Below, in pieces: positions 41,102 through 42,726 of a DNA stretch of 64,000 nt. Under the pieces are notes generated by a model. The model searched no databases and had not been told where the DNA came from. It saw nothing but the letters and a program-made list of their open reading frames with translations. Both the position numbers and the translations under genes were made by a program. Position 1 is the first letter of the stretch; every line of letters begins with the position of its first letter. Source of the stretch: Shigella phage SF1-1. The stretch lies in the sequence record PQ571307; one strand, written 5' to 3'.

Positions 41102-41434
41102 GATAATCTCCTCTCATCGTTAGCCATCTTTCATGGCAATCATCAATCACCAACATCATACGATCAATCTCAGGGAATTACAATCGAATTATCATAGGGG
41201 ATTCCTATCAATTATCCCATATATACCGATTATTTTTGACACCCCACTCTTGTATAAAAAGTAACCCAAAATATCTACGGGGAGAGATTATTTCGACACA
41301 CCCTGTTTCATGGCAATCATGGCAAGAATATCTAATAGAATCAATATCATATGGCAAAAATCATGGCGCATACGTAAGAAGTGCTTAACGCGAATTTTCG
41401 GGCCGTCAGGTCCACGCAGCGACAATTCCCAAAT

Positions 41435-41463
41435 ATCATGAGAATGAGAATAATTATCATTCG
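41435..41463. promoter_or_regulatory. Fur-box-like AT-rich palindromic motif (copy 1)
   Basis: ATGAGAATGAGAATAATTATCATTCG, about 13 of 19 matches to GATAATGATAATCATTATC. Confidence 0.25.
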
Positions 41464-41621
41464 TATTCAATGACTTATGCAAGGCTTATGCCAACGTAGC
41501 GACAAAGTGGGCCACTTGATTATAAATCACACAAACACTTATTTATCAATGGTTTGGCAACTTCATCATATGACGGAACATTGTCAACTGATCCCGCTCA
41601 TAACAAGCAGACTATTATTTA

Positions 41622-41643
41622 TATGAGAATGATTATTATTTAA
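41622..41643. promoter_or_regulatory. Fur-box-like motif (copy 2)
   Basis: ATGAGAATGATTATTATTTAA. Confidence 0.2.
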
Positions 41644-42683
41644 ACGTTTATTAACATAAAAACTAAAATAAATCAAGAATTTTCTGATTTTATTTACGTT
41701 TAAGAGAAGATGCTCAACATATCGCTACGCGATAGTATTCGCCCCCGTAATATTTGCTCTTTTCTTAGTGCTCAACATTCCCGCCCGTGGCGGTAACATT
41801 TCGCCCCCAAAATTATTGACTTTTATTCTATTATGTGCACACTATGCAACCTGTCGCTACCGACCGCCCTCCGGTCGGGGTAGCATCGCGCTATTCGCTC
41901 ATGTTGCTACGTGCAATTATTCATCTTGCTAATGATTTCATATTGTAACCATTACAATGATTATTGTTATTGCGCTAATGTTATGATCTTGGTAATTACA
42001 TATAATGCTAATAATAAGCCAGCGCAATAAGTGTAAGCGTAATTACGCTTGCAATTATTGCAAGCTACGCAATAACAAGAAATAACCGTCACCGATGGTT
42101 ATGATTGTTGGGGTGTAGTTGGCTTATTATTAGCTCGCTATGTGTCCGGCATAGCGTGCTAATGATGACTCTGTGAATGATTCGTTTTGTAATGATTTCA
42201 TTCAGGCACTATTTTGCTAATAGTTATTATTTTAATGGTTTCGTTTGTTATTGTTCGTTAGTTGGTTGTTTTGTCGTGTTATCGTTATCTTGCTTAGTAT
42301 TCATCATGGTTTGATTGTTTGTTGTTATCAATCATCTTGCTATTATTCCTTTGATTATGATTAGTTTGCTTATTGTTTTATGTTGTTTGTTGGTTAGTTG
42401 TTGCGAACTATTATCAACATGATAGTTATGCGCTTATATTGCATAGATAATCATGGGTAGATGATAATGGTTATCATTGCACTAGAAAGGAGGTAAAAAG
42501 GTGTTTTTGATGGTTTGTTGTTGGTTGTTGATCGATTTTAACCGCTATAAATGGCTCTCTAACAGCCTGTTGCCCTGGGGTGTATGGTTATTCGTTTAAT
42601 GGCTGATTAGCTCGATACCGCGATTTATTCAATTTTATTCTGTGTCGGTTTTTCATAGGCGAAAGCTATCAACATTGTTCGGG

Positions 42684-42711
42684 CAAAAAGAAAGGGCGCT
42701 TGGTGCGCCCT
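42684..42711 (-). terminator. rho-independent terminator (minus strand)
   Basis: Minus strand reads AGGGCGC-accaa-GCGCCCT followed by TTCTTTTT, directly after the 42727 stop. Confidence 0.6.
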
Positions 42712-42726
42712 GGTATGAAATGTTGT

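Follow-up and report, generated by a model that had tools for sequence, protein, structure and literature searches.

A conserved plus-strand fold beside the direct terminal repeat in the gene-free genome-end region of a phAPEC8-like phage

The window analysed here, a stretch of 64,000 nucleotides from Shigella phage SF1-1 (sequence record PQ571307), contains a region at 41102-42726 that is bounded by two genes on the minus strand, 40727-41101 and 42727-43110, for which every PHROGs assignment is to unknown function. Within it, 41483-42726 (1244 nt) lacks any open reading frame (ORF) of 60 amino acids (aa) or more on either strand, as the original prediction had claimed, and is the largest such gap in the window, the next largest being 568 nt long at 49501-50068. 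This gene-free stretch is where the genome ends, or concatemer junction, lie in a phAPEC8-like myovirus, the DNA of which is packaged with short direct terminal repeats (DTRs), and a conserved fold specific to the plus strand adjoins the repeat. Terminal repeats are biology already known for the subfamily; no description was found in the literature of the folded plus-strand element (block A), which is previously undescribed, of the conserved C-depleted spacer that follows it, or of a set of Fur-box-like sites. In the curated records of relatives only a terminator is annotated in the region. A scan of the window for tRNA and tmRNA genes found none, and the T4-type late motif TATAAATA is not enriched.

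When the 1.6-kb region was compared with phage records using megablast, 73 matches were found at 80-99% identity, these being phAPEC8-like myoviruses of ~150 kb (Phapecoctavirus, Stephanstirmvirinae); on sequence similarity, the window is assigned to a Phapecoctavirus, a phAPEC8-like E. coli phage. A more sensitive search raised the number of matching phage records to 139, among which are unclassified Klebsiella phages as well as Justusliebigvirus (phi92-like), with block A itself matched by 132. The original prediction had allowed that the region might be absent from all relatives; instead, it is kept in every relative found.

The lead to the repeat was that many GenBank records of relatives start or end within the region. 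The features at the junction are as follows, a bar marking the cut.

41386-41714, no strand: DTR of 329 bp, from the record ends and the annotated or stated repeats of relatives
41381-41389, plus strand: left cut motif GTGCT|TAAC(GCGA), cut between 41385/6 and 41386/7
41710-41718, plus strand: right cut motif ATGCT|CAAC, cut between 41714 and 41715

Both ends of the Schickermooser and Mt1B1_P17 records, when mapped to the window, fall at 41386/7 and 41714, hence the single assembled copy of the repeat is 41386-41714; it is placed by homology to the ends of relatives. The phi92 record annotates a right repeat (DTR-R) of 343 bp, which starts and ends at bases homologous to those of the window DTR, as do the boundaries of the 342 bp repeat determined for BME3 by PhageTerm (PMC12210895). 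The terminal repeat of Schickermooser has been given as 328 bp by Korf et al. (PMC6563267), and a 2025 paper describes Stephanstirmvirinae genomes as ending with direct terminal repeats (PMC12695924). The phi92, Schickermooser and BME3 repeats share the position of the window DTR and its end sequences, which are homologous across genera: TAACGCGA(A)TTTTC... at the left, and ...TTTAAGA.A..RGCT followed by CAAC at the right. The repeat occurs once in the window, as assembly collapses both virion ends; read in the plus direction, the mature DNA begins with 41386/7, and its last base is 41714. The same sequence is hence predicted at both virion ends, the arrangement of a T7-type short DTR.

GCT|YAAC is present at both boundaries of the DTR. 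Nine relatives, Klebsiella phage KP13-26 among them, have the pair GCT|TAACGCGA ... GCT|CAAC at a distance of 327-344 bp, the left motif being partly altered in PsgM04F, and the Ro121lw and 10C3 records have been opened precisely at GCT|CAAC. RTGCTYAAC is found seven times in the window against 2.3 expected, with three copies within 41381-41776. The boundary bases shared by four relatives, and the motif in nine representatives, point to fixed, sequence-specific cutting rather than headful variation, and we conclude from these comparisons that GCT|YAAC is where the terminase cuts, on either side of the DTR; the gene for the terminase lies outside the window. No mention of this motif, or of Fur-box-like sites within the DTR, was found in the accessible papers on these repeats. 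The region was originally suggested to include a packaging site, and does contain the DTR and both cuts (41386/7, 41714/5); these lie to the left of the features that had prompted the suggestion, and neither the palindromes nor the G+T stretch is a cut site. Phages of the phi92 and phAPEC8 types are widely isolated and feature in both therapy cocktails and the BASEL collection, yet GenBank entries for them often misplace the genome ends, with many opened at arbitrary points. The DTR together with GCT|YAAC provides a simple rule by which such genomes can be oriented and annotated.

Right of the DTR, ~1 kb of non-coding sequence is conserved. Alignment of the lineages from the DTR to the flanking gene reveals one block that is conserved in all of them, with evident compensatory changes. 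Its predicted fold, a three-way junction accompanied by a hairpin, is composed of the following elements.

42007-42156, plus strand: block A, three-way junction and hairpin, from RNAalifold and compensatory changes
42007-42020 with 42121-42134, plus strand: P1, the closing stem, 14 bp
42024-42028 with 42057-42061, and 42032-42039 with 42046-42053, plus strand: P2
42063-42070 with 42113-42120, plus strand: inner stem, enclosing a hairpin (42082-42090 with 42094-42102) with a 3-nt loop
42136-42143 with 42149-42156, plus strand: P4, a separate hairpin

The alignment of block A drew on phage records, viral contigs and metagenomes, and comprised 19, and later 25, distinct sequences; in the pattern scan of metagenomes, five of 14 matches were chance matches to a palindrome. 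RNAalifold identified 51 pairs, of which none was broken in the first 19 sequences and 14 had changes on both sides. Across the 25 sequences, 99.7% of the 1275 cells are paired, a figure matched by none of 500 shuffles, and sliding the partners by one to three columns as a control lowered it to 23-54%. Block A is the most conserved segment between genera (75-76% identity, against 51-55% for the DTR and spacer) and the sole segment of 41100-42730 with a z score below -5. A conserved fold with compensatory changes, as is looked for in a structured RNA, is hence present.

The assignment to the plus strand follows from the wobble pairs: G·U is found at 12 pair positions (in some or all sequences, amounting to 124 cells) and A·C at none, hence it is the plus strand that folds. 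Pairing would drop to 90% were the opposite strand considered. The minimum free energy (MFE) of block A is -77.5 kcal/mol on the plus strand (z -10.3) and -56.3 kcal/mol on the minus strand (z -6.6), and DNA parameters rank the strands alike. The structured RNA originally envisaged from the minus strand is thus not borne out, as the only strongly structured segment, 42007-42156, folds on the plus strand. All three of the palindromes reported in the original prediction are present, and GCGTAATTACGC (42036-42047) and GCTTGCAAT/ATTGCAAGC (42047-42065) belong to the folded element. The invariant palindrome GCTTGCAAnnnTTGCAAGC (42047-42065) contributes one arm to each of two helices, and its own hairpin would exclude P2 and the inner stem; two G·U pairs are never replaced by G-C, because GCTTGCAAnnnTTGCAAGC could form this competing hairpin. 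TTGTAACCATTACAA (41944-41958) is an interrupted inverted repeat that is not conserved in relatives.

Searching the whole window with Rfam 15, which includes phi29 pRNA, ribozymes, 6S and HK022 put, gave no match at the gathering score, and at E values up to 10 the segment 41100-42800 gave chance-level matches only (E of at least 0.39). A covariance model of block A did not match four more distant phage loci that have the flanking gene, and found no matches outside Stephanstirmvirinae. Block A is among the best-supported unannotated structures that can be obtained from sequence alone. It might be a free-standing plus-strand gene for a non-coding RNA, the product of which would act in trans, for instance on mRNAs or proteins of the host or the phage, or on the packaging motor; adjacency to the DTR would then be incidental, and the spacer a Rho-resistant 3' tail or a mere spacer. 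Stable RNAs typically show this kind of covariation, have invariant G·U pairs (of which there are three) and close a three-way junction with a helix of the 5' and 3' ends; the stability is very high (z -10), and the distance from the cut site ranges over ~200-470 bp across lineages, such that the geometry is not fixed. However, no promoter and terminator were found bracketing block A, it always adjoins the DTR, and the absence of Rfam matches, phi29 pRNA included, and of covariance model matches beyond the subfamily also counts against a product acting in trans, which we regard as a real possibility, albeit an unlikely one.

In every lineage, block A is followed by ~250-400 nt that are low in C on the plus strand.

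42170-42480, plus strand: C-depleted spacer, plus-strand C 6-14% per 50 nt

The window averages 50.1% G+T per 300 nt (standard deviation 4.1), against which the peak of 72.3% at 42106-42405 has a z of 5.4; elsewhere the highest value is 61%. C on the plus strand drops to as little as 8.7%. The strand skew noted originally is therefore real and the extreme of the window, but the description of 42130-42440 as almost exclusively G and T was overstated, as its composition is T 49%, G 20%, A 19% and C 12%, with A+C making up 31%. C per 50 nt is 6-14% in SF1-1 and 2-8% in Justusliebigvirus, and T is high in SF1-1, whereas A and T are approximately balanced in Justusliebigvirus. Since C is depleted in all lineages despite these differences in A and T, the conserved property is C depletion and not G+T richness. 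The sequence of the spacer is also 90-97% conserved within the Phapecoctavirus and phiWec lineages, and its three-base periodicity is weak (T lag-3 autocorrelation of 0.25).

No significant structure was found in the spacer on either strand. For a minus-strand RNA of 42180-42390, MFE values range from -3 to -8 kcal/mol per 170 nt (z approximately 0 to +1), so the skewed stretch, from which a structured C/A-rich transcript had been anticipated, is nearly unstructured in that orientation. The minus-strand C/G ratio is ~2 in SF1-1 and 3-9 in Justusliebigvirus, and a rut site is predicted on this strand, there being at least 80 nt that are unstructured with C well above G, at an absolute C content of ~20%. 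The skew could hence serve only to stop the early operon that converges on the region, as a minus-strand Rho-loading site that backs the operon's terminator and insulates the DTR, with block A unrelated to it. The position of the spacer directly downstream of that terminator, the lack of structure in the minus-strand RNA and the C/G ratio, higher still in other lineages, would all suit such a site. However, the minus-strand C content is average, 300-400 nt far exceeds what a Rho site needs, and it is the sequence of the spacer that is conserved, not just its composition; we consider this explanation quite improbable.

The right-hand part of the region, as far as the early-operon terminator, has the following features.

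42405-42481: operator-like block, with the palindrome TTATGC..TTGCATA (~42426-42447) between Fur-box-like sites
42462-42476: Fur-box-like TGATAATGGTTATCA, in the operator-like block
42439-42444 and 42463-42468, plus strand: promoter-like TTGCAT-18-GATAAT, overlapping the operator-like block
42604-42672: sequence-conserved, unstructured segment holding TGATTAGCTCGATACCGCGAT and CATAGG..CTATCA (42654-42672)
42693-42711, minus strand: intrinsic terminator of the converging early operon, AGGGCGC-ACCAA-GCGCCCT and a T-run

The upstream Fur-box-like copy in the operator-like block is degenerate in SF1-1 and intact in Justusliebigvirus. Approximately 200 nt of conserved sequence follow the block; TGATTAGCTCGATACCGCGAT is identical, or nearly so, in Phapecoctavirus, phiWec and Justusliebigvirus, the part invariant in all lineages being only ATA.CGC. 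The sole consensus RNA structure found in block B, the third of the conserved segments, is the terminator, which in phAPEC8 and phiWec also has a plus-strand T-rich tract after it. The operon that ends there is driven on the minus strand by early promoters of the form TTGACA-16-TAATAT. Strong sigma-70 early promoters (at least eight, with TTGACA, 16-18 nt and TAnnnT) cluster on the minus strand at 45014-48600, and TTGACAN{16,18}TANNNT is found 26 times in the window against four expected; on this sequence evidence, 45014-48600 is taken to mark the early region, transcribed toward the genome end.

Block A, the spacer and the operator-like block make up ~690 nt (42001-42684) that lie inside the left virion end and abut the early-operon terminator. 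In comparison with phiWec181, block A, the spacer and block B are each 90-92% identical, against 65% for the DTR and 69% for the stretch after it; on account of this contrast with the DTR, we infer that the three form one cis-acting module. Between the DTR and block A, and within the DTR itself, the following features are found.

41709-41822, plus strand: two tandem ~60-bp units, beginning at the right DTR boundary
41738-41756 and 41800-41818, plus strand: copies of TTCGCCCCC(A/G)AAAT, in the tandem units
41855-41884: GC-rich hairpin GCTACCGACCG..CGGTCGGGGTAGC, absent from phAPEC8 and specific to SF1-1
41927-41940, plus strand: conserved TGCTAAT(G/T/A)NTTTC, ~75 nt upstream of the folded element
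41544-41556, plus strand: IHF-core-like TATCAATGGTTTG, in the DTR; other lineages have AATCAATGGCTTG

Each of the ~60-bp units comprises RTGCTCAAC (the second copy at 41768-41776), a short GC hairpin and TTCGCCCCC(A/G)AAAT; there are two units in the window, three in KP13-26 and one in phAPEC8. The clustering of GCTAAT noted in the original prediction is real, with direct repeats starting at 41928, 41975 and 42007, and four copies of TGCTAAT within 41927-42221, all on the plus strand, out of 17 on both strands of the whole window. In KP13-26 (locus L013, ~1900-2010) there are three near-identical tandem 38-bp units beginning GCTAATAATACC, the last of which supplies the 5' side of P1, a helix arm that behaves in the manner of an iteron. 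The IHF core has one match in the region, which by itself is not above chance.

The stretch from the DTR to block A could be a packaging recognition site acting as duplex or extruded DNA, as do lambda cosB and T7/T3 pacB. On this view, the small terminase would have its binding sites in the palindromes as well as in the GCTAAT and CCCCC-AAAT repeats, end formation would involve inverted repeats close to the junction, as in the T7 hairpin intermediate, and the spacer would have no role of its own. Such a site would fit with the repetition of the cut motif in the tandem units just right of the DTR, the direct GCTAAT repeats and the KP13-26 units, the IHF-like site, and the location of the module on the side of the DNA that starts a new genome. 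It would not lead one to expect the excess of G·U over A·C positions (12 against none), nor the compensatory changes in stems outside the repeated motif; the spacing to the cut varies, and the divergence of the DTR and cut-proximal sequence in phiWec181, where the module is well conserved, shows that the two are not evolving together. We therefore judge a duplex packaging site to be distinctly unlikely.

The composite reading that we favour, tentatively and at a little less than an even chance, is of a genome-end region with a cis module that works through an inward transcript and R-loop origin, or through a variant with displaced DNA. The module would act in cis through a single-stranded plus strand. 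Transcription reading inward from the end would produce an untranslated RNA, the 5' domain of which would fold as block A, and the C-free tail of which would be unable to load Rho. With G in excess of C over DNA that is 70% A+T, this tail may stay hybridised to the template as an R-loop, exposing the plus DNA strand on which a T7-type primase-helicase could load and rightward replication be primed, much as in ColE1 and at T4 oriF/ori(uvsY). The same asymmetry would leave read-through from the early operon G-poor and free of structure, such that Rho would stop the transcript before it reached the DTR. In the variant, the folding molecule would be plus-strand DNA, displaced from the left cut as the repeat is duplicated, and the fold would serve as a priming signal. 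Depletion of C is the expected mutational footprint of frequent single-strandedness, as on non-transcribed or displaced strands. The zone near the TGCTAAT repeats is ~70% A+T with a G>C skew of +0.33, and the four iteron-like repeats in 300 nt adjoining such an asymmetric stretch would be consistent with the replication origin suggested originally. The related phage rV5 has T7-type replication proteins, with a PolA polymerase and a gp4-like primase-helicase (PMC3606486).

A number of observations weigh against the inward transcript and R-loop origin. No conserved sigma-70 promoter was found upstream of block A in SF1-1, muut and KP13-26; promoter-like sites are only weakly above the shuffled number in SF1-1 (19 against 11.4, standard deviation 3.7) and not above it in two relatives. 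No terminator was found directly 3' of block A, and the operator-like block sits in the path of the proposed transcript. G·T wobbles are tolerated in folded single-stranded DNA as well, hence the strand test does not discriminate between RNA and DNA. The direct GCTAAT repeats, in tandem in KP13-26, and the invariant palindrome resemble iterons bound by proteins as duplex, and the TGCTAAT repeats also serve as arms of helices. DnaA boxes (TTWTNCACA) are absent from 41102-42726, and neither a promoter nor an adjacent initiator gene was found. The minus strand of the spacer, at ~20% C, is G-poor rather than C-rich and would make a modest Rho site. Finally, no transcriptome, origin, packaging or non-coding RNA data were found in the literature on the subfamily.

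Known systems offer several partial parallels. In T7, genome units are separated by one copy of the repeat, with non-coding DNA and short tandem repeats on its flanks. The junction described here likewise has one repeat copy, tandem repeats and non-coding DNA, as in T7 and T3, but the DTR is approximately twice as long as that of T7, and neither promoters for a phage RNA polymerase nor a pause site were seen. In ColE1 RNA II and T4 oriF/ori(uvsY), replication is primed by a transcript or R-loop, a folded 5' RNA preceding an A+T-rich, G>C-skewed stretch. The same order is seen here, with a predicted folded 5' domain before an A+T-rich, G>C-skewed stretch, and the replication proteins of rV5 are T7-like; however, there is no sequence similarity to these origins, and no promoter was found. 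The phi29 pRNA is a folded molecule of ~150-170 nt whose gene lies a few hundred bases from the genome end; its two termini pair as a helix, and it contains a three-way junction. Block A resembles it in size, genome-end position, end-pairing helix and three-way junction, but does not match the corresponding family (RF00044) at E values up to 10, and the phage here is a myovirus. The resemblances to ColE1 RNA II, T4 oriF and phi29 pRNA are best taken as functional analogies only.

For an untranslated region rich in palindromes at the boundary of a repeat, the nearest parallel is the injection-stop (iss) region of T5, which exceeds 1 kb at the end of the left terminal repeat and contains DnaA boxes (bioRxiv 10.1101/866236). 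Common to both are more than 1 kb of non-coding sequence at the repeat boundary and boxes resembling binding sites for a host protein; however, the T5 repeat is 10 kb long with DnaA boxes, as opposed to 329 bp without them here, and no covariation pointing to a single-stranded fold is described for T5 in that preprint. In the region analysed here there are neither DnaA boxes nor a set of first-step-transfer genes, as a T5-type injection stop would have. We know of no two-step injection in phi92-like or phAPEC8-like phages. The genome map of rV5 has a box marked 'non-coding', without ORFs and left uninterpreted by its authors (PMC3606486); it is a similarly marked ORF-free stretch in a related phage group, in which the covariance model of block A has no match. 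Block A is placed where replication, packaging and early transcription meet, and provides a handle on the start of replication or the formation of ends in a large myovirus with DTRs.

The coding potential of the region was assessed through two small ORFs and through comparison across lineages.

42501-42599, plus strand: 32-aa ORF with a GTG start and a strong Shine-Dalgarno sequence; the start is lost in phiWec181
41288-41482, minus strand: 64-aa ORF with a TTG start, the sole ORF of at least 60 aa inside 41102-41482; without annotation in phAPEC8

The 32-aa ORF is probably not a gene, having no equivalent frame in other lineages. The 64-aa ORF spans the physical end at 41386 and so would not be intact on virion DNA; it too is probably not a gene. 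Conserved small ORFs were rejected more generally, as none keeps its start, end and frame across lineages, and peptide similarity tracks the blocks of nucleotide conservation. A conserved coding frame, a finding that would have told against the original prediction, was thus not seen in the comparison across lineages, and on this sequence evidence we conclude that no conserved protein is encoded in the region. Some GenBank records do annotate six to nine 'hypothetical proteins' there, and these, along with the strong Shine-Dalgarno sequence of the 32-aa ORF, could be taken to indicate small protein genes that are decayed or have gone unrecognised. Such genes are barely credible given the lack of any ORF conserved in start, end and frame, the loss of the 32-aa start in phiWec181, and the curated phAPEC8, phi92 and Schickermooser records, which annotate none.

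The remaining features lie in the DTR and at the other genome end.

41440-41461: Fur-box-like palindrome 1 (TGAGAAT-A-ATTATCA), in the DTR and conserved in all lineages
41620-41640: Fur-box-like palindrome 2, in the DTR; in phi92 it is TGATAATGATTATCA, a 14/14 match to the 7-1-7 consensus
41102-41385, minus strand: sequence upstream of, or leader to, 40727-41101, the first minus-strand gene at the other end of the genome
41316-41287, minus strand: weak promoter-like TTGCCA-18-AATAAT, in the upstream or leader region
41191-41211: CATAGG..CCTATCA motif, in the upstream or leader region

Alignment of the DTR reveals conserved islands at the two Fur-box-like palindromes, the IHF-core-like AATCAATGGCTTG and both ends. 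The Fur 7-1-7 consensus TGATAATnATTATCA is matched at 12-14 of 14 positions at 41446, 41625, 42462, 49526 and 49584, and with up to three mismatches it is found 11 times against 1.7 expected; by consensus match, these are candidate Fur boxes. In KP13-26 (locus L013, ~1441-1462) a LexA-box-like CTGTATAAGTGAACAG / CCACTGTATAAGTGAACAGTGG takes the place of palindrome 2. Fur-like and LexA-like boxes in the DTR of a lytic phage suggest control by host repressors that differ by lineage; the Fur-box-like sites, if real, would link the end region of such a phage to the iron status of the host. That block A represents a new class of structured phage RNA at the genome end, whether a primer or R-loop RNA for the firing of a terminal origin or an RNA of end processing or packaging in a myovirus, functionally analogous to ColE1 RNA II or phi29 pRNA, with the DTR and module guarded by host Fur (by LexA in a Klebsiella lineage) such that replication or packaging senses iron or the SOS response, seems to us unlikely.

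The segment 41102-41277 is 91% identical to that of Justusliebigvirus muut. TCATAGG-N5/6-C(C)TATCAA is found on both sides of the DTR (41191-41211 and 42652-42672), in the same orientation, with both copies conserved across genera.

The next-largest gap, 49501-50068, contains two further Fur-box-like palindromes, TGAGAATGATTATCA and TGCGAATCATTATCA (boxes at 49520-49602), 58 bp apart, with A+T-rich repeats (ttttgtaaa) after them; the gap probably serves as a further regulatory region for the same factor. In three distant phages with the flanking gene (L019 ~1876-2490, L020 ~1186-1760 and L022 ~939-1530, reverse-complemented), there are ORF-poor gaps of 0.9-1.1 kb with clusters of Fur-like motifs and, close to AACGCG (the motif of the left end in Stephanstirmvirinae), segments of moderate structure (z -6 to -9); the genome ends of these phages may lie in such gaps too. 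A 20-nt hairpin motif, GTAGGGCGGCAATGGTGCCG, is found just downstream of strong early promoters at 44987-45006, 48827-48846 and 43703-43722 (minus strand). It is labelled a PHIRE 'promoter' in the phAPEC8 record, but looks from its sequence and position more like a conserved 5' leader hairpin. Lastly, four records named for other hosts, MG065650.1 and MG065639.1 ('Campylobacter phage'), OR584014.1 ('Pseudomonas phage PsgM04F') and OP562383.1 ('Acinetobacter phage'), are 80-97% identical to the region; these non-enterobacterial host assignments look doubtful, or else the phage preparations were contaminated.

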